A DNA stretch of 63,427 nucleotides, counting the filler, from an uncultured archaeon (lineage in GTDB: Archaea; Iainarchaeota; Iainarchaeia; Iainarchaeales; 1-14-0-10-31-34): NCBI GenBank assembly GCA_964442255.1. It is 3 parts of 3 records of this genome, joined end to end, with 100 filler letters (N's around TTAATTAATTAA, not from the genome) between each part and the next. Parts side by side here need not be neighbours in the genome. Positions count along the whole stretch, not along the records: positions 1 to 27,888 come from CAYTYC010000017.1; 2 more parts are not named here. One strand, 5' to 3'. Of the stretch, positions 1,185 to 61,885 are shown one piece after another. Position 1 is the stretch's first letter; every line of letters begins with the position of its first letter. The notes under the pieces are model-generated. The model ran no database searches and was not told the origin of the DNA. It saw nothing but the letters and a program-made list of their open reading frames with translations. The translations under genes and the position numbers were made by a program.

Positions 1185-1425
1185 GTTTTGGGAAAAGTTT
1201 GCAGGCTAAGCCAGGTTTTGCAGAATCTTTTTTTTCAAAAAGTTTGTCGGCGAAGCCGAATTGGCAAAGCCGGTTTTGATGAAACTTTTTTGAAAAGTTT
1301 CTTTTGGCGGAGCCTTTTTTTGATGAAACTTTTTTGAAAAGTTTCTTTTGCTCAAGCTTTTCTTAAAAGCTTGTCCGGCGAAGCCGGGTTTTTTGATCAA
1401 ACTTTTTTTCCAAAAAAGTTTGGCT
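1185..1425. repeat. Array of TTTTGAT-footed palindromic hairpins upstream of 16S
   Basis: Repeated TTTTGAT-GAAACTTTTTTGAAAAGTTTC units interspersed with GGCGAAGCC mini-hairpins. Confidence 0.85.
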
Positions 1426-1480: not shown

Positions 1481-3155
1481 ATTCCAGCTGATCCTGCTGG
1501 AGGATACTGCTATTGAAGTTCGATTTAGACATGCAAGTCCCAAAGGCAAAGCCATGATTGCTTTTGGCGAACGGCTCAGTAACACGTAGGTAACCTACCC
1601 TTGAGCGGAGCCAAACCCGGGAAACTGGGCATAATGCTCCATAGGCGAAGGCAACTGGAAGGTGCCTTCACTGAAACGCAAGCACTTCATGCTGTGCAAG
1701 CGCTCAAGGATGGGCTTGCGGCGGATTAGGTTGTTGGCGGGGTAACTGCCCACCAAGCCGAAGATCCGTACGGGCTTTGAAAGAAGTGGCCCGGAGAAGG
1801 GAACTGAGATAAGGTCCCTAGCCCCACGGGGTGCAGCAGTCGCGAAACCTTTACAATGCGCGCAAGCGTGATAAGGGAACTTCAAGTGCCGGCAATGCCG
1901 GCTTTTACGGAGTTTAAATCGCTCCGTGAATAAGTGGGGGGCAAGATACGTGCCAGCCGCCGCGGTAACACGTACTCCACTAGTGGTGTCCACTAATATT
2001 GGGCCTAAAAAGTTCGTAGCCGGTTCAATAAGTCTTTGGTGAAAGCAGTGGGCTTAACCCATTGAAGCGCCTAAGATACTGTTGGACTCGGGACCGGGAG
2101 AGGTCAAGGGAATTTTCGGGGTAGCGGTGAAATGTTGTAATCCTGAAAAGACCACCCGTAGCGAAGGCGCTTGACCAGAACGGCTCTGACGGTGAGGAAC
2201 GAAAGCTGGGGGAGCGACCCGGATTAGATATGGAATTGAGGAAAGAGACACCAAAAGAATTAAATAGAAAGAATGAAGCGAGCTGACCGAGGTGAAATAA
2301 GCATAAGGGAAATCGCAGCCAGTGCGATGTTAAGGAAAATAATTGGTGCCAAGGAAAAAGGCAAAATTTAATTTTTTTCTCTTTTGGCTGTTCTCTTTCT
2401 TCTTTCCACTAAAAACCCGGTTAGTCCCAGCCGTAAACGATGTGGACCAGGTGTCGTAATACCTTTAGGGTACAGCGGTGCCGAAGGGAAGCTGTTAAGT
2501 CCACTGCCTGGGGAGTACACCCGCAAGGGTGAAACTTAATGGAATTGGCGGGGGCGCACTACAAGGGGTGGATGCTGCGGTTTAATTGGATTCAACGCCC
2601 GATAACTTACCAGGGGCGACAGCAGAATGATGGACACTCTGAAGGGGTTTCCTGACGCGCTGAGAGGTGTTGTATGGTCATCGTCAGCTCGTACTATGAA
2701 GCGTCCTGTCAACTCAGGCAACGGGCGAGACCCATGCCCTTAGTTGCTATTTCCAAAAATTTTTTGGGGAGCACTCTAAGGGGACTGCCGAGGCAACTTG
2801 GAGGAAGGAGTGGGCAACGGTAGATCTGTATGGCCCGAATCTCCTGGGCAACACGCGGCATACAATGGCTGAGACAATGGGTTCCGAACCCGAAAGGGCT
2901 AGGTAATCTCCTAAACTCAGCCTCAGTTCGGATTGAGGCCTGTAACTCGGCCCCATGAAACTGGAATCCCCAGTAATCGCGAGTCACGATCTCGCGGTGA
3001 ATCAGTCCCTGCGCCTTGCACACACCGCCCATCAAGCCAGTTGAGTAGAGTTTGGATGAGTTTCATTTACAAGAATGCAACGATTCTGAGTTCTGCAAGA
3101 CGGGCTAAGTTGTAACAAGGTGTCCGTAGGGGAACCTGCGGACGGATCACCTCCT
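1481..3155 (+). rRNA. rrs: 16S rRNA (archaeal), interrupted by an intron at 2230-2414
   Basis: ATTCCAGCTGATCCTGC start, GTGCCAGCCGCCGCGGTAA, GGATTAGAT/ACCC, CACACACCGCCC, GGATCACCTCCT 3' end. Confidence 0.98.
2230..2414 (+). other. 185-nt BHB-type intron in 16S (between E. coli 793/794)
   Basis: TTAG/CTAA helix, bulges AT^A and AA^A, TGGAA/TTCCA stem; removal restores GGATTAGATACCCGG. Confidence 0.9.
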
Positions 3156-3156
3156 T

Positions 3157-3620
3157 CAAAAAAACCTTTTTAGAAAAAAGGTTTACCAAAAAAGTGTGGC
3201 TTACGCCACGCCCTTTTTGGAAAAACAGGGAATTCAACTCCAGGCCTTTAATCAGCCAAGAAAGCTTTNNNNNNNNNNNNNNNNNNNNNNNNNNNNNNNN
3301 NNNNNNNNNNNNNNNNNNNNNNNNNNNNNNNNNNNNNNNNNNNNNNNNNNNNNNNNNNNNNNNNNNNNTTGGAAAAAAGCTTTAGCAAAAAGGAGGCTTA
3401 CGCCAAGAAAGCTTTTTGGAAAAAAGCTTTAGCAAAAAGGAGGCTTACGCCAAGAAAGCTTTTTGGAAAACCTTGTAAATGCTTTGCGTCGTTAAAAAAC
3501 CTTTCGGTTTTTTGACGCGTCGGAAACCTGCAGGTTTCCAACGTTACGAGGCCCCGCAAACCTTAAGGTTTGCAAGGAAGCTTTAGCAAAAAGGGCCGCC
3601 TCCGGCGGAAAAACTTTTAG
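3157..3620. repeat. ITS hairpin repeats including a ~47-bp tandem unit; contains an assembly gap
   Basis: AAACCTTTTTAGAAAAAAGGTTTACCAAAA; AAAAAAGCTTTAGCAAAAAGGAGGCTTACGCCAAGAAAGCTTTTTGG at least twice. Confidence 0.8.
3228..3259 (+). other. 3' arm of the pre-16S BHB processing stem
   Basis: Complementary to 1420-1452. Confidence 0.85.
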
Positions 3621-13224: not shown

Positions 13225-14918
13225 ATGTAATTCGCGTTTGCCTCTGAAACATCCGCCACTTTTTTCAGGTCTTTAACCATTTTGTCCAGCTCTGCGGACG
13301 AATGGCCGTCAACCACCAATACTGCTTTCACTAACCTGTTTGGGGTTGGGGGCTTCACGTCAACTGAATGAATGTTGAAGTTGTGCTTTGCAAGCACCTT
13401 TGTGATGTCCCTGAGCATTCCAATCCTGTTTTTCATTAAAACCGAAAGGTTAACCAGCCCGCCTTCGCTTACTTTTGGGGACTCCTTTTTCCCAAGCGCC
13501 TTTTTTATCCCGGAAATCGCCTCATAGCTTTTGGCGTGCTTCAGCCAATCCGGTTCCACGGTGCGCTTTTTTAATGGAATCAATTCCACTATGTCGCCGG
13601 ACTTCATGGCATGGTTTAATGGAACGGATTTTCCGTTGACAACCGCTTTTGCAAGCTTTTCGCCCATTGCCTCCGAAATCTCAAATGCAAGGTCTATGGG
13701 CGTTGATTCCCGCGGCAGTTCATACATTTTTCCTTTCAGGGTGAAAACGTAAATTTGTTCCTTCAAGAAATCCTCCCTGAGCACGCGGACAAATTCCTCT
13801 GTTTTAAGCGGCTTGCGCTGTGCCGAAAGAATCTGGTTTAAAAGGGAAATTTTCAACCGCTTGTCCCTGCTTTCCCTGGAAAGAAGCGCAAGCACCCCGT
13901 TTTCAGCCAGCTCATGCATTTTTTTTGAGCGAATGTAAATCTTCAGTGCCTTTCCTTTGGGGCCCATTACGCTTGTGTGGATTGACTGGTAAAAATTGGG
14001 GTAAGGGGCAGCAATGTAGTCCTTAAGCTTCAGGGGAATGGGCGTGAAAAGGTTGTGGATTTCACCGAGAACCCCATAGCATTCCGCCATGTTTTCCGTC
14101 AAAATTATCATTATTTTGTAATCATAAATTTCATCCGGTGTCTTCAGTTCCCTTGAAAGCTTGTAAAAAATGGTGTAATAAGTTTTTTCGCGGATAATGA
14201 ATTCAACTTTTTTCCTTTTCTTTGAAAGGGCTTTGAGAAGGGTTTTTTTCAGTGCGACGAGCTCTTCATGCTTTTTTCTTCTTTCCTCGTCAATTTTTGG
14301 GCGCCATCTTTTTGCTTCAGCCGGAAACGCAAAAGGAAAACAAAACTCCTTCAAGGTTCGCTCAAGGGATTTTATCCCCAAATGGTGCGCTATGGGGACG
14401 TAAATTTCAAGAGCCTCCCTTGCGTTCTCCATTTGCTTTTTTTTTGAAAGCGCCTTCAGGGTTTTAATGTTGTGGAGGGTGTCTGAAAGCTTTATGAGAA
14501 TAACCCGGATGTCTTTTGAGGAAGCCAACAGCATTCTCTGAAGGGCTTCCGATTTTGTCCCCGCCCCTGATTCCCCCACCATTTGGTCGAGCCTTGTAAG
14601 GCTTTTCACTATTTCGGAAACCTCTTTCCCGAATTCTTTCCTCAAAACCTTTGGCTCAAGCTGCGTGTCTTCCAAAACGTCATGCAAAAGCGCGGCTGAA
14701 ATTGTCGGCGAACCCAACCCAAATTTCGCGAGATACATTGCGGCACTGTAAGGGTGGACAAAAAATTTTTCACCGCTTTTCCTGAACTGGTCTTCGTGGG
14801 CTTTAAAAGAGAACTCGAACGCCTTTTCAACCAGCGAAGTGTCCCTTTTTGGGCCGAATTTTTTTATTTCCCTGAGAAGCGCCTTTAATGCCTTCTTTTT
14901 GTTGAACCGAACCCCCAT
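13221..14918 (-). CDS. Long RelA/SpoT homologue (HD hydrolase, degenerate synthetase, TGS, ACT)
   Basis: RKSGE..HP, LLHDVLEDT, KDYIAAP..YQSIHT, IYVFT..ELP..STPIDLA, NRIGMLRDIT. Confidence 0.9.
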   Translation of the reverse strand: MGVRFNKKKALKALLREIKKFGPKRDTSLVEKAFEFSFKAHEDQFRKSGEKFFVHPYSAAMYLAKFGLGSPTISAALLHDVLEDTQLEPKVLRKEFGKEVSEIVKSLTRLDQMVGESGAGTKSEALQRMLLASSKDIRVILIKLSDTLHNIKTLKALSKKKQMENAREALEIYVPIAHHLGIKSLERTLKEFCFPFAFPAEAKRWRPKIDEERRKKHEELVALKKTLLKALSKKRKKVEFIIREKTYYTIFYKLSRELKTPDEIYDYKIMIILTENMAECYGVLGEIHNLFTPIPLKLKDYIAAPYPNFYQSIHTSVMGPKGKALKIYIRSKKMHELAENGVLALLSRESRDKRLKISLLNQILSAQRKPLKTEEFVRVLREDFLKEQIYVFTLKGKMYELPRESTPIDLAFEISEAMGEKLAKAVVNGKSVPLNHAMKSGDIVELIPLKKRTVEPDWLKHAKSYEAISGIKKALGKKESPKVSEGGLVNLSVLMKNRIGMLRDITKVLAKHNFNIHSVDVKPPTPNRLVKAVLVVDGHSSAELDKMVKDLKKVADVSEANANYI

Positions 14919-14944
14919 ATTCGTATATAGAACCCAAAAAGAAA

Positions 14945-15044
14945 TAAAAGGATTTACATTCGCTCAGGCTAAAAGGATTTACATTCGCTCAGGCTAAAAG
15001 GATTTACATTCGCTCAGGCTAAAAGGATTTACATTCGCTCAGGC
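14945..15044. repeat. 25-bp tandem repeat x4 covering the argS stop codon
   Basis: TAAAAGGATTTACATTCGCTCAGGC, four exact copies. Confidence 0.95.
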
Positions 15045-16732
15045 GCCCCGATATTCAGGAGCCCAAGGCAGTTGCCCATCACCGTTTTAAATGCCTTAAC
15101 CAGCTCAATTCTTGCCCTTGCCGCTTCCTCTTCCGCGTTTAAAACCGGAACGTCCCTGTAAAAGGCGTTGAAAGCCGAAGCAAGCTCCAATGAAAAGTGC
15201 ACAAGCCTGTGAAGGCTGCGTGAAGAAAGGCTTTCCTCCACCTCCTTTGGGTAGCGCACCATAAGTGAAAGCAGCCTTTTCTCGGTTTCATGGTTAAGGG
15301 CAGAAAAATCCGGCTTTTTTTGCTTTTTCTTTGACTTCCTTAAAATGCTGGCCGCCCTTGCAAAAGAGTACTGCACGTGGGGAGCGGTTTCGCCGTCAAA
15401 TGAAACCGATTCCATGGGATTGAATTGAATGTCCTTGAACGGGTCAACCTTAAGGAGCTGGAACTTTATTGCCCCAAGTCCTATCAGTTCCGCGCGCTTT
15501 TGCAGCTCTTTTTTCGGGATTTTTTTGTGCCTTTCCAGTATTTCCTTTTTTGCCAACTCAATGGTTTCATCCATCAATTCATCGGCCTCCACCACTTTTC
15601 CCTCCCTTGACTTCATTTTTCCTTCCGGAAGGTTGACCATCCCGTATGAAAGGTGTTCGCAGTTTTCCGCCCAATTGTATCCAAGCAAGTCAAAGATTTT
15701 GAACAACTGCTTGAAATAAAATTTTTGTTCACTGCCCACAACCCAAACCGCTTTATTCAATTTGAATCTTTTGAATTTTTCCAGAGTCAGGGCCAAATCG
15801 TTTGTGATGTAAATGGATGTCCCGTCTTCCCTGACAACCACTTTTTTTCCCAGGCCCTCTTTTTCCAGGTCCGCGACAATCGCCCCACTGGAAGTTTTAT
15901 TGAAAACCTTTTTTTTGAGTGCCTCCCTTATTATTGGCTCTGATTTCCCGTAAAAATCCGATTCCCTGAATTCAACGTCAAACCTTGAGCCAAACCGTTT
16001 ATAGGTTTCCCTGAAACCCTTTATTGCCCATGAATCCATTTTTTTCCACAAAGCAAGGGTTTTTTTGTCGCCTTTTTCCCAAAGCGCGAGAAGCCTTTGC
16101 GCCTGGATTTCAAGGGAAGGGTCTTCTTTGGATTTTTCATTGAATTTCACGTAAAAATCGCCCACAAAGTGGTCTGGCTTTCCTTTCGGCTTTTTTCCTT
16201 TCCCCCAAAGCAGGTAGGCAAGCATGGACTTTGAAATGTGGATTCCGCGGTTTGAGTAAAGGTTTGCCCGCACTACACTAACGCCGTTTGCCTCAAACAA
16301 ATTGGATAAAGCCATTCCGATTGAATCATTCCTCAAATGCCCCAGGTGCAGGGGCTTGTTTGTGTTGGGGGCCGAGTATTCCACCATTACCTTGCTTTTT
16401 TTTCCTTCCCTGTTTTGCCCGAATTTTTCTTTTTCTTTCAGTATTTTCGGCAAAAGCCGTGAAGCAATCCGGGAATAATTTAGGCGAAAGTTCAGGTAAG
16501 GCCCAACTGCAGAGGCTTTTTCAATCAGTTCCGGCGCCAAAATTTTTCCGCTGAGCTTTTGCGCTATTTCGTTCGGGTTTTTTTTCCATTTTCCGGCAAG
16601 AAGGTGGCAGGGAAAAGCGTAGTCCCCAAGCCTGGAGTCGGGGGGAACCTCAATCATTGATTGAATCTTTTCTTTAGGCAAATCCTTTTCAGAAATGGCT
16701 TCATTCAACAGCACCGCAATTTTTTCCTTCAT
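15029..16732 (-). CDS. argS: Arginyl-tRNA synthetase
   Basis: EYSAPNTNKPLHLGHLRN, KMKSREG, QYSFARAASI, C-terminal PERM. Confidence 0.97.
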   Translation of the reverse strand: MKEKIAVLLNEAISEKDLPKEKIQSMIEVPPDSRLGDYAFPCHLLAGKWKKNPNEIAQKLSGKILAPELIEKASAVGPYLNFRLNYSRIASRLLPKILKEKEKFGQNREGKKSKVMVEYSAPNTNKPLHLGHLRNDSIGMALSNLFEANGVSVVRANLYSNRGIHISKSMLAYLLWGKGKKPKGKPDHFVGDFYVKFNEKSKEDPSLEIQAQRLLALWEKGDKKTLALWKKMDSWAIKGFRETYKRFGSRFDVEFRESDFYGKSEPIIREALKKKVFNKTSSGAIVADLEKEGLGKKVVVREDGTSIYITNDLALTLEKFKRFKLNKAVWVVGSEQKFYFKQLFKIFDLLGYNWAENCEHLSYGMVNLPEGKMKSREGKVVEADELMDETIELAKKEILERHKKIPKKELQKRAELIGLGAIKFQLLKVDPFKDIQFNPMESVSFDGETAPHVQYSFARAASILRKSKKKQKKPDFSALNHETEKRLLSLMVRYPKEVEESLSSRSLHRLVHFSLELASAFNAFYRDVPVLNAEEEAARARIELVKAFKTVMGNCLGLLNIGAPERM

Positions 16733-16809
16733 TTTTTCTCAGCCAATTCAAATCTTGCATAAAAGTTTTGACCAAAAAACCTCAAAAACCCACCGAATCC
16801 CTTATTTAA

Positions 16810-16953
16810 CGGACCCGAAAGTATTCGAACAGCCTTTTAAAAAAAAAGCTGGCCAAAATGCCGAATCCCTTTCCTTTTTAACGGACCCGAAAGTATTCGA
16901 ACAGCCTTTTAAAAAAAAAGCTGGCCAAAATGCCGAATCCCTTTCCTTTTTAA
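16810..16953 (-). repeat. Two 72-bp units downstream of tRNA-Arg, each with a copy of the tRNA 3' end plus a hairpin
   Basis: CGGACCCG...ATTCGAAC at 16810, 16882 and 16954 (period 72); degenerate extra unit at about 16745-16809. Confidence 0.9.
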
Positions 16954-17128
16954 CGGACCCGGAGGGATTCGAACCCTCGATCCTCAGCTTTCCTCCAGCG
17001 CATTAAAAAAAAACGCGCAACAAATATTTATAAGGGGTTAACCAAAAAAAAACCCCTTGACGTATCTCGCCGCACGCGGGCAAAACCGCGTTAGAAGGCT
17101 GATGCCTTATCCACTAGGCTACGGGTCC
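16954..17128 (-). tRNA. tRNA-Arg(TCT) with a 102-nt intron at 37/38 (16990-17091)
   Basis: GGACCCG acceptor, TCAGC-CTTCTA^A-GCTGA anticodon arm, CTTC/GAGG central BHB helix. Confidence 0.93.
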
Positions 17129-17186
17129 AATGGAATAGAATTTAGGCGCACTTCATATTTAATATTTTTGCGGACACAGTTTCCGC

Positions 17187-17672
17187 CTATTTTTCCACGT
17201 TAAAGGCTTTAGCGAAAAGGGATTTTTCCCCAAACCTTCCTGCCTTCACGTCAAGCAGCCAGACAAAAAGGTTTTTTCTGTTAAATGTTTTTTCAAAGAA
17301 TTTTGGCCTGCTGTTCTTGTGGAAAACCTTTTTCTTTGGTTTCCTGTAAAATTCAAGGCAGTTGTGCGGCAAAACGAAAACAAACTCGTCCACCTGGTCG
17401 GCGTACAAAAGCTTTTCCTTGAGCTTTCCCTTTGAGGGCCTGCTTAAAACCTCCATTCCCATGAACTTTCCCCCCGCAAGCGCCACCAAAAAATCGAATT
17501 TCCCTTTTTTTCCGTTGCAATACACGGAAGAGTTTTCAAGCAAAACGTCTTTTTCCGGGCAGATGCGAAGAATTTTCAGCTGCTTTCGCATGTGCTGCCT
17601 GTGAAGCTCGTGCAGGGTGTGAAGGTGCATTAAAACTGTTTTGCTTTCACCGGAAGCGGAAATTAATTTCAC
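17187..17672 (-). CDS. Hypothetical protein, possible PD-(D/E)XK fold
   Basis: 161-aa ORF overlapping the tal stop; FDFLV...GMEVL...KL..Y pattern. Confidence 0.55.
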
Positions 17673-18319
17673 CTTTTTTTGACTTTTTCCCAGTCCTCTA
17701 AAAATTTTTTTATTCCCTTGTCCGTCAATTCATGTTTCGCGAGCTCCTTCAAAACCTTGAACGGGGCTGTTGCGATGTGCGCCCCGCATTTCGCGGCACG
17801 CAAAACATGCCCCGTATTCCGCACGCTTGCAACTATTACCTCTGTTTTGAAGGGGTAACGGGAAAAAATTTCCATTGTTTCTTCCACCAGTTTCATTCCG
17901 TCTTCATTGATGTCGTCCAGCCTGCCCACAAAAGGGCTTACAAATGTTGCACCGGCTTTTGCCGCCAAAAGCGCCTGGTTTGCGGTGAACACAAGCGTCA
18001 CATTTGTTTTTATTCCCCCTGAATTCAATTGCTTTACCGCCTTCAATCCCTCTGTTGTCATCGGAATTTTTACCGCAACGTTTTTGTGGATTTTCGCCAA
18101 CTCATTTGCCTCTTTAATCATTCCTTCGGCGTCCACTGAAACGGCCTCCAATGAAATGGGTCCGTCCACCAGCGAAAGAATTTCTTCAGCCATTTCCTTG
18201 AAAGATTTTCCCTCCTCTTTCGCCATAAGCGAAGGATTAGTGGTTACGCCGTCAATTATTCCCCATGAAACTGCTTCCCTTATTTCCCCAATGTTCGCGG
18301 AGTCAATGAAAATTTTCAT
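17669..18319 (-). CDS. tal: Transaldolase / fructose-6-phosphate aldolase (type 3B)
   Basis: [39 protein letters not shown]. Confidence 0.95.
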
Positions 18320-18468
18320 TTTTTTGCCCCCTTTTTCTTCAAGCTTTTTTCCGGAAATTCGTTTTCCGTTTTCCCGGATTTCGGCTGGTAGGCGGGATTC
18401 CTTAAAAGAAAGTAAACCGCAACCAAAATAAACACGACCACAATGCCAATTATTATTTCCTTAAGCAT
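18316..18468 (-). CDS. 50-aa single-TM protein (not in the ORF track)
   Basis: [25 protein letters not shown]...; its stop overlaps the tal start (ATGA). Confidence 0.6.
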
Positions 18469-18502
18469 TCCTTCACCAATTCAATTTATTCCCATTATTT
18501 TT

Positions 18503-18973
18503 TTAACCCAAACCCTTTTTTTTGCTTATTTCTTCCGCGAATTCATGCGCTGAAACAAGCCTTTTTTCGCTCAGGCTTAAAATGCTTTTGAATACTCGTG
18601 AACCGAGAACAGTTCCCCCGCGCGAGGAAATGTGCGAGGAAAGCTTTTTCACGGTTTTTCCCGGAAAACCCATTCCAGTCACAAACAGCGCCACCTCTTT
18701 TCCTTCAAGCGAGCATTCCTTCAGGTATTCCCTTATTGCCCTGCTTGGGCGGAGGTTCCGCGTCGGGGTTCCCAAAAACACCAAATCAAAGTAATTAAAG
18801 TTTGTGATGGTGTTGTTCAATGAAAGCCTTTTTCTCCTGAACCTGGACTGCCTCAAGGTTTTCAGCCTCTGCATCGTCACTTCCGCCTTTTTTTCCCTGA
18901 AAACCGAGGCAATTGCTTCAGCCACCGCCTCAGTGTTGCCTGTGTGCGAGTAATAGCTTATCAGCACCCTCAT
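18503..18973 (-). CDS. Flavodoxin-like protein
   Basis: YYSHTGNTEAVAEAI, DLVFLGTP, VALFVT. Confidence 0.85.
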   Translation of the reverse strand: MRVLISYYSHTGNTEAVAEAIASVFREKKAEVTMQRLKTLRQSRFRRKRLSLNNTITNFNYFDLVFLGTPTRNLRPSRAIREYLKECSLEGKEVALFVTGMGFPGKTVKKLSSHISSRGGTVLGSRVFKSILSLSEKRLVSAHEFAEEISKKKGLG

Positions 18974-19070
18974 TTTTTTTTCCCCACAAATTATTCATTG
19001 AACGGAAATAAAAAGCTTTCAGGAGCGCAAGGCTTAAATACCTCAAAGCATTTAATTTAATGGATTTAAA

Positions 19071-20150
19071 ATGAGGAACGCCTTTATCCTGCTTTTTGCC
19101 CTGATTTTGGCGCAGGGCGCAAGCGCATTTGAGGTTTCTGCGCCTTCGGAAATCATGCCCGGAAGCAACTGGAGCGTTTGGGTTAAACTGGATGCAACAA
19201 ACGCCTTCACGGAAACAATTTTAATTTTGGACGGGGAGGAAACCGTTTCAGTCAAGCCCAGCGGAGACATTTTAACGAAAAGCAAAAAAGTTTCCAGCGC
19301 GTTTGTGACGGATGAAGACCCTGAAAGCTTGGGCGGATTGACGCTTTACGTTTCATTTATCGGCTTAACAGGGGGAAGCCACACACTACGGGTTGAATCC
19401 TTTCACCAGGGAAACTTAACGCAAACAGAAACCCGGGGCATTACTGCAACCCAGTTTTCCCAAAAAAGCTTTGAAGAGCAAATCACTTCCCGCGTGAACG
19501 GCCTGGAAGAGCAAAAGAATTCCCTTGACTCCAAGGTTTCCGGAATTGAGGAAAAAGTGAAGGAAGTTTCCTTGCTGCTGGATGAAAGCTCCTCAAAGGC
19601 AGGCGAAAACAGCGATGAAATTGCCGCGGCAAAACAGTTGCTGGATGAATTGAAAGGCGATTTGCGGGGAGTGAAAGAGTCACTGGACCTGTTTGCGGAG
19701 GAAACTGAAATCCAGAACCTGACGCAGGATTTGGTGAAGCTGAACCAAAGGGTGAATGCCTTAAGCCCGGCGCTTGCGTTAACTGAAACCCCTTCTCACA
19801 ATGCGCTGCCCCCTTCCGGACTGGTTTCCTTGCCTGCGGGCAGCAGGCAGCTTATTGCGTTGATTATTGGAATTGCTTTGATTGTGTTAGGCGCTTACCG
19901 TTTCAGCGGAGGCTTCAATGGTTTCAGCGGATTCCGTGACTTAGGCTTAAGCGGAAGGGGAAAGCAGTTGTTTAAGGCAAGGGAAGGCTTTTCCGCTGAA
20001 AAGGCAGCAAAACCTGTGGGAAAAGGTAAATGGAGTTACGGGGAAGAGGCACTGAATGAACGGGCGCCTGGAACGGAAGGAAAAGAAGTTTTGCGCCGCC
20101 CTCCGGCCAAAAAAAGAAAAATCAATTTCACTGATTTGCTGAAAAAATAG
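19071..20150 (+). CDS. Secreted, membrane-anchored coiled-coil protein
   Basis: Signal peptide, heptad region, PSGL motif before a TM helix, basic tail. Confidence 0.75.
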   Translation: MRNAFILLFALILAQGASAFEVSAPSEIMPGSNWSVWVKLDATNAFTETILILDGEETVSVKPSGDILTKSKKVSSAFVTDEDPESLGGLTLYVSFIGLTGGSHTLRVESFHQGNLTQTETRGITATQFSQKSFEEQITSRVNGLEEQKNSLDSKVSGIEEKVKEVSLLLDESSSKAGENSDEIAAAKQLLDELKGDLRGVKESLDLFAEETEIQNLTQDLVKLNQRVNALSPALALTETPSHNALPPSGLVSLPAGSRQLIALIIGIALIVLGAYRFSGGFNGFSGFRDLGLSGRGKQLFKAREGFSAEKAAKPVGKGKWSYGEEALNERAPGTEGKEVLRRPPAKKRKINFTDLLKK

Positions 20151-20155
20151 CTGTT

Positions 20156-20431
20156 TTGCTTATGGCTTCACTTCAGGAACTTGAGAAAGACTTAGGGAAA
20201 CTTAAAGAACGCAACAAAAACGTGGAGGCAGACAAGGCCTGGGAAACCAGCTGGGCGAGAAAAATAGTTATTTTCCTTTTGACTTATGCGGCAATCACGG
20301 TTTACTTCTCAGCAGTTGGCCTTCCCGACCCTTTTTTGAATTCTTTTGTGCCCGCGCTTGCATTCGTCATCTCCACCCTCACCCTCCCCTACTTCAAGGA
20401 ACTCTGGGCGAAATACTCGTACAAGAAATAA
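20156..20431 (+). CDS. Conserved small membrane protein
   Basis: ERNKNVEADKAWETSWARK followed by two TM helices. Confidence 0.75.
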   Translation: MLMASLQELEKDLGKLKERNKNVEADKAWETSWARKIVIFLLTYAAITVYFSAVGLPDPFLNSFVPALAFVISTLTLPYFKELWAKYSYKK

Positions 20432-20477
20432 CTGCGGGAAAAGCATTAAATATCAGAAAATGCATCTGAATAACTGA

Positions 20478-21079
20478 ATGAATTACAAGTTCCTTTCACT
20501 GGCCGGCTTGATTTGGCTGACTGCTTTGGCTGGGTGCATTAACCCCGCTGATTTCATGAAATTTGATTTGACTTCCGCCTATTTTTTTGAGGAAAACAGG
20601 GGAATTGAGCACTTTTAAGTAACCCAAACGCATTGCAGTATTATAATTTCTGCATTTCTCAAATTGCATTTTTCCAGCAGAACCCGGAAATCTGCAGTAA
20701 AATCAACCCGGAATACGAGGCAACTCCTCCAACAAGCGATTTGGTGGGGGAATGCATTAGCCGCATATCGGCTTTTCATGATGCAGTGACAGAAAAGCCT
20801 GAACAGAATTACCTCCCTGAAAATAACCCGATTGGGGACTGGACCGAGTGCATTGAAAAGAAAGGAAAAACCTGCGCTGAAATTTGTTCCCAGAAAGGCT
20901 TAACCTGCTCCAACACCTGCACTACCCGCACCGGGCTGAAGAATTGGGGCGCTGAGGCATGGTTTAATTCAAGCACCTGCAGGACTGGATTGGAAGGCAG
21001 GGGGCAGACTGACTGTGAACACATCGGCGACACGCTGGGAGTTGAGCCAAGGTGGAGATGCTGCTGCGCAAGTGACTAA
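20478..21079 (+). pseudogene. Split Cys-rich lipoprotein
   Basis: Lipobox ORF MNYK...LAGC (20478-20618) stops; the Cys-rich body continues in another frame (20633-21079). Confidence 0.5.
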
Positions 21080-21105
21080 TTACAATATTACCTCAAAGAA
21101 AACAG

Positions 21106-21403
21106 TTAATCAAGAAGCTTGATGAAATCTTTTTTCTTCATTTTCAGGTCCTGCTTAATGATTTTGTTCAGCAGGCCCGGCCCAATTGGTTCAGTGCCGT
21201 GAACCGGCACACTGGTTTTTCTTCCGTCCGGGTGAGCAAAGCGGTGATAGGCTATATTGCCACCGGCAGTCAGGATTTGGTGAACTGGTTTTTCTTCTGT
21301 CCGGGTGAGCAAAGCGGTGGTGGCTTCCAGTCACACGGCTTTTCTTGAAGCCCGGTTTTTCCAACGCGGCAAGCAGTTTTTTGGGCTTAACCTGCTTTGC
21401 CAA
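21106..21403 (-). pseudogene. hicA: HicA family toxin frameshifted by a 73-bp insertion/duplication
   Basis: GF..RVTGSHHRFAHPD and ...GRKTSVPVHG..IGPGLLNKII lie in different frames. Confidence 0.85.
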
Positions 21404-21407
21404 AGAA

Positions 21408-21626
21408 TTACACCTCAACCATTTGAATGCCTACAAAGTGGTTGGAGGATTTTTCTGTCCGCTCTTCCGAGCACAATCCAATTACTTCCTTGACTCTTTT
21501 AATCAGTTCGTCCATGGACTTTGCCTGGGTGTGGCAGCCCTGCAGTTCCGGAACATCAGCCACAAGCCAGCCGGCCTCATCGCGCTCAATTACAACCGTA
21601 AAAGCCTTTTTTCCCATAAACTTCAC
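21408..21626 (-). CDS. hicB: HicB family antitoxin
   Basis: FTVVIERDEAGWLVADVPELQGCHTQAKSMDEL. Confidence 0.9.
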   Translation of the reverse strand: MKFMGKKAFTVVIERDEAGWLVADVPELQGCHTQAKSMDELIKRVKEVIGLCSEERTEKSSNHFVGIQMVEV

Positions 21627-21765
21627 CTAAAATAATAGTGCCTGAACCCGGATTTAAACCTATTGCCCGGGTGGTTTGCGGTTTCAATTTTTTGTAATGC
21701 CTTCATTTCATTTACCCCCTTCTTTTGCTTCTGTTCCTTCTATTTTCCTTTTGCTTCTGTTCCTT

Positions 21766-22707
21766 CTATTTTCCTTTTACAAATGTTTTGGCCTGCCTTA
21801 AGTATTCCTTTAAACAAAATTCAACAAGCAAGCGTGGCTTTTTCTTTTCGACTGAATCAATGAGTGCTTTGAAGTAGGTTTCTCTTTTTTCGGAGATGTT
21901 TATTAAAGGAAACCCCGCATCCAAAAGTGTCTTGTTAAATAATAGCCTGCAGATTCTTTTGTTTCCGTCCAAAAAAGGATGAAGTGCATAAATTCGGTAA
22001 TGGGTTAAAGCTGCTTTTTCAACAGGGTTTAAGCTGCTTTTTTTATGCCATTCAATAAACTGCTTCAGCAATGAAGGAACTTCCCGGTGCCCGGGCGGCC
22101 TGTAAGCGATTTCAATGCTGAGCGGGTTTTCTTCATCTCTTTTATGCAGGTAAACCTGTCCTTGCCTTAGCTTTCCGGGTTTTTTTGTTTCAAAGTTTGC
22201 CATTATTGTTTTATGCAAGCCAAGCAAATATTGCTTGCTTAGTTCTCTTCCGCCCTTAATGGACTCAACCGCTTTGAGCATGCTTTTGCCAATCTGTTCT
22301 CTTAAGGAAAGATTTAAATCTTTCCCGTATGCTCTCTCCACGTCTTTTAAGCTGACATCAACATCTTCAGTGGTTAAAGTGGTGAGAGTAAAAAGAATTG
22401 TTTGGTCAACCTCAAATTTCCTTTTTTTTGCCGGGCTCAGCGACTCAAGTTTTCTGTTAAACGCTTCTTTGAAAAGCAGTGTTTTTATTACTTCATCTTT
22501 TGAAATGTTTTCAGCATCGTACTCTTTTCCTGAAATCCTCTTTACAATTTCGTCCTTAAAGGCTTCAGTGGTTTTCTGAACTGCTTTTTTCGTTGGCTTT
22601 TTTGGCCCAAAGTATTTGCTGAACTTCTTTGACTTGCTTACTACAAAATAGCTTAGCTCCAGATAATAGTAATTTTTTCCTTTAATTTTCTTTTTTCTCA
22701 AAACCAT
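21766..22707 (-). CDS. Fic domain protein
   Basis: HPFLDGNKRICR motif. Confidence 0.92.
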   Translation of the reverse strand: MVLRKKKIKGKNYYYLELSYFVVSKSKKFSKYFGPKKPTKKAVQKTTEAFKDEIVKRISGKEYDAENISKDEVIKTLLFKEAFNRKLESLSPAKKRKFEVDQTILFTLTTLTTEDVDVSLKDVERAYGKDLNLSLREQIGKSMLKAVESIKGGRELSKQYLLGLHKTIMANFETKKPGKLRQGQVYLHKRDEENPLSIEIAYRPPGHREVPSLLKQFIEWHKKSSLNPVEKAALTHYRIYALHPFLDGNKRICRLLFNKTLLDAGFPLINISEKRETYFKALIDSVEKKKPRLLVEFCLKEYLRQAKTFVKGK

Positions 22708-22802
22708 GCAATAGTTAGGCGGATAAAACTATTTAAATATATGCGCCTAACCAGTTAGGCGGAGAAGCAAACCAAAAAAATGGCGGCTAACCGCCTTTTT
22801 GT

Positions 22803-23360
22803 CGCGTGAAAGTTTGCGGGGTGGAGGATTCGAAGAACCTTTTTAGAAAAAAGGTTCATCAAAAATACCAAAAACACGAATCCTCCGCAAGGAAGGCATC
22901 GGAACAGCATATTTATGAGGTATTGAGCGAAGCGAAATACCTTGACGTATCCGCATGTAAAAAAACAAGAACCCTCCGCAAGGAAGGCATCGGAACAGCA
23001 TATTTAGAAGGGGTTGACCAAAGGGAAACCCCTTGACGTATTCGCGTGTAAACTTCGCGTGAAAGTTTGCGGGGTGGAGGATTCGAAGAACCTTTTTAGA
23101 AAAAAGGTTNNNNNNNNNNNNNNNNNNNNNNNNNNNNNNNNNNNNNNNNNNNNNNNNNNNNNNNNNNNNNNNNNNNNNNNNNNNNNNNNNNNNNNNNNNN
23201 NNNNNNNNNGGATTCGAAGAACCTTTTTAGAAAAAAGGTTCATCAAAAATACCAAAAACACGAACCCTCCGCAAGGAAGGCATCGGAACAGCATATTTAG
23301 AAGGGGTTGACCAAAGGGAAACCCCTTGACGTATTCGCGTGTAAACTTCGCGTGAAAGTT
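22803..23360 (-). repeat. Tandem ~162-bp units (one 253-bp variant) downstream of tRNA-Leu, each with the tRNA 3' end plus hairpins; spans a gap
   Basis: TGCGGGGTGGAGGATTCGAA at 22815, 23068 and 23361, partial at 23210. Confidence 0.9.
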
Positions 23361-23444
23361 TGCGGGGTGGAGGATTCGAACCCCCGTAGGCACTAAGCCA
23401 CAAGGCCCTCAACCTTGCCGGTTTGACCGCTCCCGCAACCCCGC
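23361..23444 (-). tRNA. tRNA-Leu(GAG)
   Basis: GCGGGGT acceptor, CAAGG-TTGAGGG-CCTTG, long variable arm, GTTCGAATC. Confidence 0.96.
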
Positions 23445-23504
23445 AAAAGCATAAGGGTTTCTGATGCGAAAGGTTTAAATTGAATAAATTCCAGTGTTTA
23501 AAGG

Positions 23505-23897
23505 ATGAAGAAAAAAATTGTTTTCGTGGCGCTTTTTTTAGGGCTGGTGCTGGTTTTTGGCTGCCCGCAGCAAAACGGCCCGCCTTCAAACGGCGGCCAG
23601 CCGACTTTGCCTGAATCCACGGACGGAAACCTGACTGTAAAGGTTTTGAAACTGGAGGACGAGTTTTGGGTGTTGGATGGAACGGTTACAGTGCGCGGGC
23701 CGGTAACCGAAACAAAAGCAATTGATGCGGGGTTTGCAGAGTTTGAAATCTTGGAAGGGCTTTACTCTGTGACAGTGGACGCGCCGGGCTTTGTCTCTGA
23801 AACCGAAGCCGCGGAAGTAATTGCCGGCATTCACCGGCAAATCAATTTCTATCTGGAAAGGGCGGAAGATAAGCGAAACTGGGGCACAAAAGAATAA
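23505..23897 (+). CDS. Lipoprotein with a carboxypeptidase-regulatory-like beta domain
   Basis: LVFGC lipobox; EGLYSVTVDAPGF. Confidence 0.7.
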   Translation: MKKKIVFVALFLGLVLVFGCPQQNGPPSNGGQPTLPESTDGNLTVKVLKLEDEFWVLDGTVTVRGPVTETKAIDAGFAEFEILEGLYSVTVDAPGFVSETEAAEVIAGIHRQINFYLERAEDKRNWGTKE

Positions 23898-23951
23898 TAA
23901 AAACAAAAAGAGCTGATGTTTTTTCAGGTTGATGTGATATCTTAAGAAAGC

Positions 23952-24569
23952 TTATTTCATTATTATGATTTTAGCATCAGGAAAATGCCTCTTAATACCT
24001 TCTTCCCATTCCTTAAAGAGTTGGGAGTTTGCTTTCAACTCAAATAGAACCGCTACAAAGTGATTAAAGTGAATACCGTACCGCATCATCTTATCTGCAA
24101 TAGTAGCCAGTTCACTGTTCCCCGTTGGGCCTTTAATCTCAATTGCAATTCTTTCTCCGTTTTTTTCAACCACTATGTCTGGTCTTGATCTCCCGAATTG
24201 CGCTTCAATTACCGTATTTGGAAAGTCTTTTTTCAGTTCCCTAGCTAAATCAATTTGATACGCATACTCCCAATGATGTTCCCTAAAGGGTTTGAAGTTT
24301 TTAATGATGTTTTCAATTTCCTCCAAAATAGGAAGATGTCCTCCTTTCCTTTCCACTCTCTTTTTGTTTACCCATTTAGCCAACCCTTTGGATCCCTTAA
24401 ACAATCCTTTTCCTGCAACCAAAGCTCCCTTTCCAAAAGCAACAGAACCTTTAACAATCAGCTCATCAACAACACCTGGCTGTCTTGTACGTCTGATCTT
24501 TGGGCGTCTTCTTTTTTTTCTTCTTTTTTTCCTCCGTTTTTGGTCGTATTGGTTAGGAAAATCAAACAT
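23952..24569 (-). CDS. PD-(D/E)XK nuclease-fold protein
   Basis: E..YQ..L, RPDIVV...IAIEIK; Arg/Lys-rich N-terminus. Confidence 0.7.
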   Translation of the reverse strand: MFDFPNQYDQKRRKKRRKKRRRPKIRRTRQPGVVDELIVKGSVAFGKGALVAGKGLFKGSKGLAKWVNKKRVERKGGHLPILEEIENIIKNFKPFREHHWEYAYQIDLARELKKDFPNTVIEAQFGRSRPDIVVEKNGERIAIEIKGPTGNSELATIADKMMRYGIHFNHFVAVLFELKANSQLFKEWEEGIKRHFPDAKIIIMK

Positions 24570-24727
24570 AATTCAACCTTCAATTTCACTTAAAATTATT
24601 CATAACGAGAGTAAAAACTCTTAAATATTGTTTCTTACGGTAAAATAGACAAGATTAGCTTATCGTTCTATGCGGAAAAATCTTCTTCTCAACTTTTATA
24701 TAAGTGCGTTCTGGAATTAGAATGCAT

Positions 24728-24816
24728 CGCAGCGGGTGAGATTCGAAGAAACTTTTCAAAAAAGTTTCATCAAAACATGAATCTCACACAGGGTCAGGGG
24801 CTTTCAGCCCCTGTCA
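24728..24816 (-). repeat. 89-bp unit downstream of tRNA-Ser with an exact copy of the last 20 nt of the tRNA plus a hairpin
   Basis: CGCAGCGGGTGAGATTCGAA at 24728 and 24817. Confidence 0.9.
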
Positions 24817-24976
24817 CGCAGCGGGTGAGATTCGAACTCACGTGCCCTTTCGGACACCAGCTCTCTTGACATCTTCTGGAAAAAGCTTTTCCGGCGAAAC
24901 CGGTTTTTTTTGATCAAACTTTTTTCCAAAAAGTTTGACTCAAGGCTGGCGCGTTTAACCACTCCGCCACCGCTGC
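24817..24976 (-). tRNA. tRNA-Ser(TGA) with a 76-nt intron at 37/38 (24863-24938)
   Basis: GCAGCGG acceptor, CCAGC-CTTGAG^A-GCTGG, CTTG/CAAG helix, long variable arm, G73. Confidence 0.93.
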
Positions 24977-25234
24977 ATTGCACAGTATTAAAGGGTGCGT
25001 TTAACCTTAAAAAAGCTGTTCATCAGGGAAAAGAATAGAAAAAAGATAAAAATGAAGGCATACCAGGGATCTGCACTGCAGTATGGCATGCCTCCTTAAC
25101 TCCCAATACGCTTTAATGAATGTGCAGAACTTTTTAAAAACGTTTTTCCCCGCGAAAGTCTACATAAGTTGGAAAAAAGGTTGGAATGATTGAACCGAAA
25201 ACATTTAATAAGGAAAAGAAAAACATTAATACGA

Positions 25235-26929
25235 ATGAACAAAAGTTTGCTGGTAATTGCTTTTGCCTGTTTGGGTTTGCTGTTCAGCGGATGCACCCAG
25301 GAAAACGGCCCCGAACCCTCTCCCGCTGCAGGCAACATCCCTGAACAGGTTTTAGGGGAATACGGAATTCCGGGAAACGGAAAAGTTGAACTGCACTGGA
25401 ACGCGGTTGAAGGCGCGCAGGGATACAAAATTTACAGGGCGCTTTCCACTGGGGGAGTAAAAACCGATTTCATTGCATTGAATTCCGAGCCAGTAACAGG
25501 AACAAATTATTCTGACGCAGGGCTCGCAAACGGCACAGCCTACTTTTACGCGGTCAGCGCAGTTAACTCAGCCGGAGAAGGGCCAAAATCAGGGGAAATA
25601 ATAGCGGTTCCATTCAAAACCGGGGGAGAACGCGAACCGAACGCGACCGGAACAGTCTGCGACCAGGAAAAAAACGAATTAAAGGTTGACTTGTGCCTAA
25701 AGAATTTGGCTGTTGCGACGGAAGACCCGCTAATGTGCAAAAAAATTACCACCCTTTCAATTGACGACTGCCTTTATGATTTGGCTTTAAACGCAAACAA
25801 GGCCGACTATTGCGCCGACATAATGGATTCCGTGAAAAAAAACAACTGCCAGAAAGAAACTGTGTTGAACCGCGAAAAAATAACCGAATGCATGGACATT
25901 GAGGCGGGCTCAACGGAAAGAAACGACTGCCTGAAGGAGCTTGCGGTTTTACAATCCAATACGGCTGCATGCGAACTCATTGAAGACCAATTAACAAGAG
26001 ACGAGTGCTTCAAGGAAATTGCGGTAAAGCTTGAATCTTATTTCCTTTGCGGAAGCGTTTCAAAAACCCTGGTGGCAGGAAACTACCTCAGGGACCTCTG
26101 CTACTCGGAAATACTTGAAAAAAAGAAGGACCTGGAAATTTGCGGGCGTTTCTTGGAACAAGAAAAAGAGATGAAATGCCTCCATGAAATGGCCGAAGAA
26201 TTAAAGGATTTTGGGGTTTGCGGCGGCATTGAAGCGGATGAAAACAGGTTTGAATGCATTTCAAATGTCGCGGCAGTTACCGCAGACCCTGATGCCTGCA
26301 TGGAAATTCCTGGTAAAGCCCTGCAGCAAAAATGCCTGATTTTGGTTGCGGAGTCAAGCGCCACAAGCATTGAAACCTGCCTGCAGATATTCAGCCACAT
26401 TGAAAGAAACAACTGCCTTTACGACATTGGAACAAGCCAAATGGACGTCAACGCCTGCATGGAAATAACGGACCGCGACCTTCAAACCGGCTGCCTTTGG
26501 ATGATTGCCACGGCAACCAATGACACGGAAGTCTGCGAAAAAATCAGGTTTGACATGAAAATGAAGCAAAACGAGTGCTTCAAGGAAGTGGCGGTCAGCT
26601 CTTATGAAATGGAGGGCTGCGACAAAATAGGTTCCCGGGACCTGTACATTGAATGCTATTCCGATATCGCGCGTGAACTCCAAGACACGGGAATCTGCGA
26701 AAACGTCACAAAAAAGTTTTTCCAGGAAAAAAACATTGCCCGCGACGACTGCTACTATTATTACGCCCTTGGAACGGCTGACACGGAAATCTGCGAGCTA
26801 ATTTTAAGCCAGAGCCTGAAAGACAAATGCTATTACGATTATTTCGTGGAAACGGATGACGACAGCGTTTGCGATGAAATAGTGGACGCAAACCTTAACC
26901 TCGTGTGCAGGGGCTGGAACGAAGCTTAA
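25235..26929 (+). CDS. Lipoprotein with an FN3 domain and Cys-rich repeats
   Basis: LFSGC lipobox; WNAV..YKIYR..YFYAVSAVNSAGEG; many C..I......RD.C repeats. Confidence 0.85.
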   Translation: MNKSLLVIAFACLGLLFSGCTQENGPEPSPAAGNIPEQVLGEYGIPGNGKVELHWNAVEGAQGYKIYRALSTGGVKTDFIALNSEPVTGTNYSDAGLANGTAYFYAVSAVNSAGEGPKSGEIIAVPFKTGGEREPNATGTVCDQEKNELKVDLCLKNLAVATEDPLMCKKITTLSIDDCLYDLALNANKADYCADIMDSVKKNNCQKETVLNREKITECMDIEAGSTERNDCLKELAVLQSNTAACELIEDQLTRDECFKEIAVKLESYFLCGSVSKTLVAGNYLRDLCYSEILEKKKDLEICGRFLEQEKEMKCLHEMAEELKDFGVCGGIEADENRFECISNVAAVTADPDACMEIPGKALQQKCLILVAESSATSIETCLQIFSHIERNNCLYDIGTSQMDVNACMEITDRDLQTGCLWMIATATNDTEVCEKIRFDMKMKQNECFKEVAVSSYEMEGCDKIGSRDLYIECYSDIARELQDTGICENVTKKFFQEKNIARDDCYYYYALGTADTEICELILSQSLKDKCYYDYFVETDDDSVCDEIVDANLNLVCRGWNEA

Positions 26930-55530: not shown

Positions 55531-55653
55531 ACAGCCGTGGACATAAATACTTGAATTTTTGTACGTCAGGAAATGCTTTAGTTTGCCAAAATGCAGGAAA
55601 AAAAACAAGGTTCCAAAAACCAAAAAGTTTCCAAAACTTATGTCCGATACTAT
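55531..55653. mobile_element. MITE-like element, copy 2 (contig end)
   Basis: Near-identical to 324-445. Confidence 0.7.
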
Positions 55654-55655
55654 AA

Positions 55656-55755: not shown

Positions 55756-56030
55756 TCCAAAAAGTTTGATCAAAAAGGGCCGCCTTCGGCGGAGAACCTT
55801 TTAAAAAAAGTTTTACCAAAAGAAACTTTTTAAAAAAGTTTCATCAAAACAAACTTTTTAAAAAAAAAAGTTTTACCAAAATTCGTCTTCGGCGGAGAAC
55901 CTTTCAAAAAAAGGTTCACCAAAATTCGCCTCCGGCGGAGAAACTTTTTAAAAAAGTTTCATCAAAACAAACTTTTTGAAAAAAAAAGTTTGGCCAAAAA
56001 ATTGCCTTCGGCAAGTGGCTTACGCCATGC
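55756..56030. repeat. Dense array of about 7 hairpin repeats
   Basis: GAAACTTTTTAAAAAAGTTTC-ATCAAAA units alternating with CGCCTTCGGCG-type mini-hairpins. Confidence 0.9.
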
Positions 56031-56101: not shown

Positions 56102-56102
56102 T

Positions 56103-61821: not shown

Positions 61822-61885
61822 CTTTAGGTTTTCTTTGGAAGAGGTTTTTGATAAAACTTTTTCCAAAAATTTTTAGAGGTGATAT

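Follow-up and report, generated by a model that had tools for sequence, protein, structure and literature searches.

tRNA genes and their trailing cassettes

The window analysed here is the whole 63,427-nt stretch of DNA from an uncultured archaeon of the Iainarchaeota, a scaffolded metagenome bin containing 576 N and, within one of its N runs, a stop-codon linker. Rfam models locate an archaeal 16S-tRNA(Ala)-23S operon and an RNase P RNA in it, and ARAGORN run with introns allowed, in agreement with Rfam, predicts four tRNAs, namely Ala, Arg(tct), Leu(gag) and Ser(tga). Three of these four are trailed by the small cassettes that are the subject of this study (Table 1). Behind tRNA-Arg, tRNA-Leu and tRNA-Ser, the segment from the T-loop to the discriminator (~20 nt) recurs one to three times downstream on the tRNA strand, and every such copy is directly preceded by the motif TTTTGRY and a T/A-run palindrome, hereafter M2. 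A preliminary description of this DNA had reported that three tRNAs are followed by their own 3' ends, and this was borne out: all copies could be located, and the shared layout of TTTTGRY, T/A-run hairpin and TTCGAAT gives five matches in the window compared with none in 100 shuffles. The tRNA-Ala of the rRNA operon has no cassette.

The Arg copies at 16805-16830 and 16877-16902 share 88% identity with 16949-16974 and belong to two 72-nt units that are 100% identical to each other (Tandem Repeats Finder, TRF: period 72, 2.4 copies), in line with the 72-bp units and three mismatches described earlier. A degenerate third unit coincides with the upstream region of the arginyl-tRNA synthetase gene. 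The Ser cassette was also described correctly, as its single copy (24728-24747) lies 89 nt downstream of the original (24817-24836) and matches it at 20 of 20 positions. The duplicated Leu segment, X, comprises 33 nt, i.e. the last 20 nt of the tRNA and a 13-nt trailer, and is repeated at 23055-23087 and 22802-22834. The earlier figure of ~162 bp for the Leu unit was not recovered: in the assembly the distances between copies are 253 and 293 bp, the second interval including a 100-N gap (23111-23210) that leaves the number and size of the Leu units uncertain. Beyond the last Leu copy lies a terminator-like hairpin with a GC-stem and T7, which fits an insertion between the tRNA and its original terminator. 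The inserts in the window are ~50-250 nt long, and the cassettes fold more strongly than shuffled sequences (z = -5.3, -3.0 and -5.7). A second module, M1, consists of a hairpin with compensatory changes followed by the TATA-like NTAAATAT; three copies lie in the Leu array and a fourth in the tRNA-Arg intron (17024-17065). No Rfam match was obtained on the cassettes at E<=0.1, the sole overlapping match being a chance-level long non-coding RNA (E=0.14). TGATGA is present in the palindrome prefixes of the Ser and Leu cassettes and absent from those of Arg and of the related copies described below; since no Rfam family is significant on the cassettes, no described C/D-box family is matched.

The preliminary description had also pointed to a tRNA-specific counter-strand, and this feature is real. 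It is a 9-mer just 5' of TTTTGRY that is complementary to GAAT plus the 3' strand of the T-stem of the same tRNA, with all nine positions pairing in Ser and in Leu (a G.T pair in one Leu unit) and 8/9 in Arg. At a cassette locus on a metagenome contig (L049) the counter-strand likewise pairs at 9/9 positions with the real tRNA and is mismatched to the decayed distal copy. Because an extra purine precedes TTC in all cases, the 9-mer agrees better with GAAT and the T-stem 3' strand in inverted copy than with the T-stem 5' strand in direct copy. Two readings of these structures were discarded. An intron in the T-loop with a bulge-helix-bulge would be expected to show the canonical motif, and by eye the 9-bp outer stem is continuous and has no 5' bulge; the 3' half of a split tRNA is disfavoured by the copies matching the adjacent intact tRNA and bringing no new acceptor.

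M2 is not confined to the tRNA ends. With the tRNA piece dropped from the pattern, TTTTGRY plus palindrome gives 24 matches at 17 sites in the window, against 0.47 expected, and at 12 of the 17 sites the outer arms are complementary at 5/5 positions while being made of six different 5-mers. In the array upstream of the 16S rRNA, three of the four palindromes match TTTTGRY, the fourth (1346-1373) is prefixed by TTTTGCT, and small GNRA-type hairpins are interleaved. A terminator-like role is suggested by the T-runs on both strands and by the lack of any T-run between the three tRNAs and the palindrome, a promoter-like role by the positions at the start of the metK-like gene (S-adenosylmethionine synthetase), in the half-copy at the arginyl-tRNA synthetase gene and in the arrays upstream of the 16S rRNA. 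As a general promoter M2 was rejected, since the protein genes here mostly have TTTAAATA-like boxes and M2-like upstream sequence occurs only at the metK-like gene, the arginyl-tRNA synthetase gene and the rRNA operon. That it terminates efficiently everywhere is doubtful as well, because the copy 3' of the 16S rRNA must be read through within the 16S processing stem. This stem, read from the sequence, spans ~17 bp (1434-1452 pairing with 3228-3245); beyond it, the spacer between 16S rRNA and tRNA(Ala) contains a 47-bp x2.2 repeat as well as an N gap. M2 is probably a two-way terminator-like or regulatory palindrome, and if so, an element carrying it would be tolerated, or even useful, behind genes.

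A dispersed insert in related genomes

A close relative of the window lineage was not found with an arginyl-tRNA synthetase probe, which yielded at best 41% identity (one partial match) and 40% over the full length. The strict window pattern, TTCGAAT plus a T4/A4 palindrome, matched 1 of 401, 0 of 61 and 1 of 61 genomes of GTDB; it was too strict, for in genome G210, which it did hit, it missed cassettes with TTCAAAT loops. Searching metagenome contigs for the window pattern gave at least 120 rows. Nine of the matches listed have a perfect hairpin of >=9 bp, and 111 of the 120 are chance matches without a hairpin. Since TTCGAAT was required, the scan says nothing on targets other than tRNAs. 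Among the hairpin matches listed, four immediately follow a tRNA (Leu-caa, Ser-tga, Ser-cga and Ala-ggc) on unrelated contigs, and M1 is present too on one metagenome contig (L050). On another, GC-richer archaeal metagenome contig (L052, 1501-1555), an orphan palindrome with a tRNA 3' fragment ending in CCA adjoins a TATA-binding protein gene, with no tRNA within 1.5 kb upstream.

In G210, a downstream copy of the last 16 nt accompanies 6 of 19 predicted tRNAs, one of the 19 being a cassette artefact, and in its sister G502 cassettes stand at 4 of 19. Behind the tRNA-Val of G488 stand three units, in one of which a GC-rich hairpin replaces the T/A-run palindrome, and G489 has one cassette behind tRNA-Arg. 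The acceptor difference between tRNA-Ser-tga and tRNA-Ser-gga of G210 is reproduced in the respective copies; that each copy tracks its own tRNA is what local duplication predicts. Distal copies are decayed, with three mismatches in Arg and many at L049. The artefact concerns L151 (G210:C15, 1759-1906), where ARAGORN calls a false 'tRNA-Thr' with an intron, joined from the 3' part of a tRNA-Gly and the cassette copy of that tRNA.

When the tRNA-Ile locus of G210 was compared by blastn with 28 genomes of the family, its insert was detected at nine further places in G210, six in G502, two in G488 and one in G489. The alignment of 19 copies from 17 loci in these four genomes defines an insert of ~75 nt with two discrete ends, consisting in order of a conserved left end TTGTTCG, a hairpin termed H1, a spacer, TTTTTGRT and, as the right end, the palindrome. 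Pairing in H1 is kept through two-sided changes (e.g. GTACAAC/GTTGTAC vs GTAAGGC/GCCTTAC) around a conserved loop. Comparison by eye of TTGTTCG with the last bases of the palindrome in the 19-copy alignment revealed no terminal inverted repeats. Complete cases always consist of upstream copy, insert and downstream copy in that order, and the flanking direct duplications are variable, comprising 16-118 nt of the sequence immediately upstream of the insert (16-65 nt at tRNA loci). The downstream copy begins right after the last base of the palindrome in 11 of 14 cassette rows; two further rows in this scoring, outside the 14, are self-matches of M2 arrays in the window.

The targets extend well beyond tRNAs to the ends of protein genes (Table 1), and two partial copies (L175, L179) lack both palindrome and duplication. 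At tRNAs, the right break falls 0-45 nt past the discriminator, the 45 nt being seen at the tRNA-Ile of G210, where the left break stays in the T-arm even with a 65-nt duplication. The T-loop region is therefore a preferred left boundary at tRNAs. The common T-loop breakpoint of the preliminary description holds as such a preference and fails as a fixed point, given that left breaks range from the 5' strand of the T-stem to the 3' half of the T-loop.

A filled and an empty site can be compared at the L10e gene, whose product is 89% identical in amino acids between the two sister genomes. G502 has copy, insert and copy, and G210 lacks both the insert and the second copy. The distal copy in G502 retains the ancestral gene end shared with G210, and the working gene ends three bases earlier at a stop codon supplied by the insert. 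This is the pattern predicted by an insertion three bases before the stop codon with a target duplication of ~50 nt. Furthermore, cassettes follow tRNA-Arg(cct) and tRNA-Ser(gga) in G210 but are absent from the near-identical tRNAs of G502. Apart from the cassette, tRNA-Arg(cct) has a 27-nt intron in G210 (L161) and none in G502 (L218) with almost identical exons, which is an intron gain or loss between sister species.

Table 1. Features of the window (with positions and strand) and insert sites in the G210 family; X, Leu duplicated segment
Feature	Position	Strand	Basis and remarks
tRNA-Arg(tct), 102-nt intron	16953..17129	-	ARAGORN, Rfam; intron carries M1
Arg cassettes, two 72-nt units	16810..16952	-	self-repeat comparison, TRF, layout pattern
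Arg inserts	16902-16953, 16830-16881	-	M2 at 16902-16930, 16830-16858
Arg 3'-end copies	16882-16901, 16810-16829	-	3 mismatches to tRNA
Degenerate third Arg unit	16733..16809	-	GGGATTCGG, TTTTGGT, half palindrome; read from sequence
tRNA-Leu(gag)	23360..23445	-	ARAGORN, repeats; X = 23348-23380
Leu cassette array	22802..23347	-	copies of X, M2, M1, N gap
M2 in Leu array	23219-23248, 22835-22864	-	third M2 at 23088-23110 cut by N gap
M1 modules in Leu array	23293-23334, 23000-23041, 22909-22950	-	
tRNA-Ser(tga), 76-nt intron	24816..24977	-	ARAGORN; intron with antisense M2
Ser cassette	24728..24816	-	repeat comparison, folding
Ser insert, 69 nt	24748-24816	-	GAAA-loop hairpin; counter-strand 24779-24787; M2 24748-24775
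Antisense M2 in tRNA-Ser intron	24908-24937	+	
Four TTTTG-prefixed T/A-run palindromes, array	1274..1422	+	upstream of 16S rRNA
M2 copy just 3' of 16S rRNA	3162..3191	-	within 16S processing stem
Five TTTTGRY-M2 units, array	55794..55999	-	at contig end
M2-like imperfect palindrome	61846..61874	+	centre ~27 nt upstream of metK-like GTG start
25-bp x4 perfect repeat	14945-15044	- (gene end)	arginyl-tRNA synthetase
26-bp x2.2 repeat	21722-21778		over stop codon of Fic-domain gene
16-bp x3 repeat	63052-63099		right after metK-like gene
L173			3' protein-gene end; ~90 nt, x3, two inserts
L174			3' end of transcription factor S-like zinc-ribbon gene; 50 nt
L176			5' end of opposite-strand gene; 31 nt
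L178			3' end of L10e gene; ~50 nt
L182			3' protein-gene end; 118 nt
L180, L181			insert between genes
L177			insert antisense inside tRNA

Explanations for the cassettes

The account we favour, with a probability of roughly 0.58, is that the cassettes are a small non-coding insertion element, composed of H1, spacer, TTTTGRY and M2, which spreads in some DPANN-type archaea and duplicates its target on insertion. The copies of tRNA 3' ends are best read as long target duplications and not as att scars of an integrase, and the element as not specific to tRNAs. Of the mini element postulated in the preliminary description, the small, non-autonomous and tandem-amplifying nature and the occurrence at varied tRNAs and in several genomes are retained, while its targeting of tRNAs is not, considering the 31-118-nt duplications of protein-gene and intergenic sequence in G210 and G502. 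The element sits at the ends of transcription units, i.e. tRNA 3' ends and protein-gene ends, and in tRNA introns and rRNA spacers. The upstream copy remains part of the gene, leaving the tRNA or protein gene intact, and the downstream copy is a dead by-product; at tRNAs, where the duplication has its left edge in the T-arm, this dead copy extends roughly between T-loop and discriminator. Once two copies exist, units multiply in tandem. The element would insert where two breaks are staggered far apart, or by template switching, with gap filling duplicating the target and an enzyme encoded elsewhere performing the reaction. Its placement also reflects selection, as insertions survive only where the duplication rebuilds the gene end.

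An enzyme was sought in four element-bearing genomes (G210, G502, G488 and G489) and the element-free control G495, all of them incomplete bins. RVT_1, the kind of reverse transcriptase that a SINE-like retroposon of TPRT type would require, was found in G502 and, broken, in G489, and was not found in G488 or in G210, where most element copies were detected. DDE_Tnp_1, sought as the transposase of a parent insertion sequence, is present in G210, G502 and G488, three of the four element-bearing genomes, without insert-like ends being found at these loci, and was not found in G489 or G495. Y1_Tnp is represented in G210 by an 87-aa fragment only, is present in the control and was not found in G502, G488 or G489. 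Cas1 was found in none of the five genomes (0/5), and Phage_integrase in all five, in G210 once beside tRNA-Thr(agt). In the window, a Pfam scan of the 12 open reading frames spanning 10561-26929 detected no integrase or transposase, as had been stated in the preliminary description.

Several observations weigh against an insertion element. No transposase, reverse transcriptase, Cas1 or integrase from these genomes could be linked to it, and terminal inverted repeats are lacking. The tRNA-specific counter-strand of the window inserts is not predicted by plain insertion. The 'empty' alleles could instead be losses, produced when the two copies recombine. Insert-free perfect tandem duplications of gene 3' ends occur at the arginyl-tRNA synthetase gene, where the 25-bp unit comprises the last 15 nt of the reading frame including the stop codon and 10 nt of trailer and contains no hairpin insert, and at the Fic gene, from which it follows that this genome duplicates gene ends by another route too. 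In addition, the window-type inserts differ from one another far more than the G210-type copies do, homology between the two types is judged from a common layout and from short motifs, and the protein-gene insertions and the empty site were seen in the G210 family only, the window lineage being represented by the 63 kb read here. All genome-wide counts given above refer to other genomes.

Such insert-free repeats, together with the 16-bp x3 repeat in the metK-like trailer, the clearly tandem-grown arrays at Arg, Leu, Trp and Val and the similar palindromes on unrelated AT-rich viral contigs, would fit a purely local origin without a mobile element, in which slippage or unequal crossing-over makes tandem duplications where terminators are rich in hairpins, the hairpins being ordinary terminators that converged. 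This is unlikely, however, as an insert of ~75 nt including loops and spacer is common to 17 loci with unrelated flanks in four genomes, single cassettes end in the copy rather than the insert, which is the pattern of insertion with target duplication, and the L10e insert provides a new stop codon. The counter-strand complementarity in the window and at L049, the folding z-scores, the compensatory changes that maintain pairing in H1 and M2 and the missing T-run ahead of the palindrome would rather suit a functional part of the tRNA unit, either a structured 3' trailer or terminator that steers folding, 3' processing or termination, or a decoy against integrating elements. We consider this improbable in view of the partial coverage of tRNAs (3/4 in the window, 6/19 in G210, 4/19 in G502), the presence or absence of cassettes at near-identical tRNAs of sister genomes, the same element behind protein genes and the decay of distal copies. 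A more ambitious view, which we regard as decidedly improbable, takes the element for a self-propagating 'terminator cassette' that chooses its targets by base pairing: an anti-T-loop segment GGATTCG, in the window the 8-9-nt tRNA-specific complement, would pair with the T-loop of the tRNA gene or transcript and thereby set one of the two widely spaced breaks. DPANN and other archaea are known for disrupted tRNA genes, and on such a view the element family would generate them by seeding tRNA introns and stray fragments.

Duplication of a tRNA 3' part is the classic mark of integration by a tyrosine integrase, and the preliminary description had invoked crossover in the T-loop by such enzymes. 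Elements of the SSV or pNOB8 kind could have integrated into the tRNA 3' part and lost their interior, leaving attL and attR close together. Integrase genes in five of five genomes, one of them beside the tRNA-Thr(agt) of G210, and the small element-like open reading frames adjoining the orphan palindrome and tRNA-3' fragment of L052 are compatible with this. It is nevertheless very unlikely: the region of the window scanned holds no integrase adjacent to the cassettes, inserts have the same ends at many loci, unlike the outcome of random internal deletions, and the same insert lies between 31-118-nt duplicated protein-gene ends, which leaves no single fixed att core. Moreover, the duplication differs at every locus and extends 0-45 nt past the tRNA, in many cases well beyond it (45 nt at the tRNA-Ile of G210), and an integrase element would consequently need a separate attP for each site.

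That the duplications are assembly artefacts is hardly credible, even though the bin is scaffolded with N gaps and a stop-codon linker, one gap falls within the Leu array and contigs of G210 often end at tRNAs. Independent Logan contigs from two DNA runs, both belonging to a single study and probably to the source sample, confirm the junctions from flank to distal copy (16600-16834, 21749-22831 and 23388-24757), and the layout recurs in many independent assemblies. The Logan contigs end inside the repeats and are uninformative on empty alleles and copy number. One contig of run X2 joins 24816 back to 24728, i.e. contains an extra tandem Ser unit, with a shorter side of 48 letters and 20 letters common to both sides of the joint. 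The joints 24775->24915 and 17072->24728 were set aside, having short sides and probably stemming from other loci.

Known systems, significance and other features

Insertion with long target duplication has been described for bacterial restriction-modification genes, including 46-bp repeats overlapping gene 3' ends (Furuta et al., 2010, PMC2853133). The likeness lies in a segment without a mobility gene that is flanked by variable long direct repeats (>30 bp), the repeats aligning to a single copy in a related genome. A repeat of >30 bp against a single copy in a relative is found here at L10e (G502 vs G210); some of the tRNA-case repeats (16-65 nt) fall below 30 bp, and a mobility gene is absent from the inserts, whose length leaves no room for a protein. 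The cases of Furuta et al. differ in carrying kilobase restriction-modification cargo and in being unique events, whereas here a ~75-nt multi-copy archaeal hairpin element with defined ends is concentrated at tRNA 3' ends and has multiplied in tandem. Very variable target duplications are also known from IS1634/IS1549, with direct repeats of 8-514 bp by an unexplained mechanism (PMC2266710), and from a 55-bp case of ISH2 in Halobacterium (PMC7002104). These are autonomous DDE elements with terminal inverted repeats, whereas the present one has neither open reading frame nor inverted termini, and a matching transposase was not found in the genomes searched.

MITEs (miniature inverted-repeat transposable elements) and repetitive extragenic palindromes (REP) with their mosaic arrays (BIME) resemble the present element in being small, non-coding, multi-copy, hairpin-forming, intergenic and arranged in arrays. 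In contrast to MITEs, it has no terminal inverted repeats and no short duplication of fixed length (16-118 nt, variable); in contrast to REP and their REP-associated tyrosine transposases (RAYT), the Y1 transposase appears only as the G210 fragment among the element-bearing genomes. In Caldiarchaeum, a 1.8-kb recombinase element left a tRNA fragment (Sugahara et al., 2012, PMC3293823), and duplicated or scattered tRNA pieces lie there, too, beside a mobile insertion, but the present inserts measure ~50-250 bp, carry no recombinase and have targets beyond tRNAs. For Nanoarchaeum equitans, tRNA-linked and possibly mobile C/D box small RNAs (sRNAs) were reported (Randau, 2012, PMC3491384), likewise small structured elements in tRNA introns, trailers and gene borders of a DPANN archaeon that are suspected to be mobile; the available portion of that report mentions no flanking gene-end duplication, and, as noted, no Rfam family is significant on the cassettes. 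A MITE-like sRNA element is known from Pyrobaculum (Lui et al., 2018). None of these named analogues is a hairpin element of <100 nt with long duplications at tRNA ends, and full-text literature searches, which did not extend to subscription journals, turned up no account of this element or of any mini-element that duplicates tRNA 3' ends in DPANN archaea.

If the favoured account is true, the cassettes would represent a very small archaeal insertion element without inverted termini that makes target duplications of 16-118 bp, and whose insertions in the extreme ends of tRNA and protein genes would be harmless because the duplication rebuilds the gene end. Being present in tRNA introns as well, it would explain odd features of tRNA genes in DPANN genomes, namely 3' fragments of tRNAs that stand alone, tandem arrays of tRNA ends, cargo inside introns and breaks in assemblies at tRNA genes. 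It would also offer many small comparable events for the study of long variable target duplication, which is mechanistically unexplained in IS1634/IS1549 and restriction-modification insertions. For annotation the cassettes matter already, as the 'tRNA-Thr' miscalled by ARAGORN at L151 illustrates.

On viral contigs, the G210-type palindrome had no matches, and the window-type palindrome had nine, on AT-rich contigs without tRNAs and without duplications. The viral-class contigs L236 (GC 0.30) and L238/L241 contain arrays of TTTTGNT and T/A-run palindromes that resemble the array upstream of the rRNA operon in the window, and may derive from DPANN archaea or from a virus infecting them.

The window holds further repeated sequences. 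Two ~120-nt copies with inverted termini GGACATAA...TTATGTCC lie at 330-450 and 55535-55655, the second stopping at a contig end, and look like a MITE or a small RNA. Two ~110-nt, GC-richer structured copies (56100-56215 and 61710-61825), one of them directly upstream of the M2-like palindrome and the metK-like start, are candidates for a small RNA gene or for an RNA of the leader or riboswitch type; neither had an Rfam match at gathering score. The 16S rRNA match (1481-3155) measures 1675 nt against a model of 1478 positions and thus contains ~200 nt extra, i.e. an insertion or intron. Finally, a full-length RelA/SpoT-type protein (HD, RelA_SpoT, TGS and ACT), a family that is rare in archaea, is encoded at 13221-14918 and adjoins the arginyl-tRNA synthetase gene.

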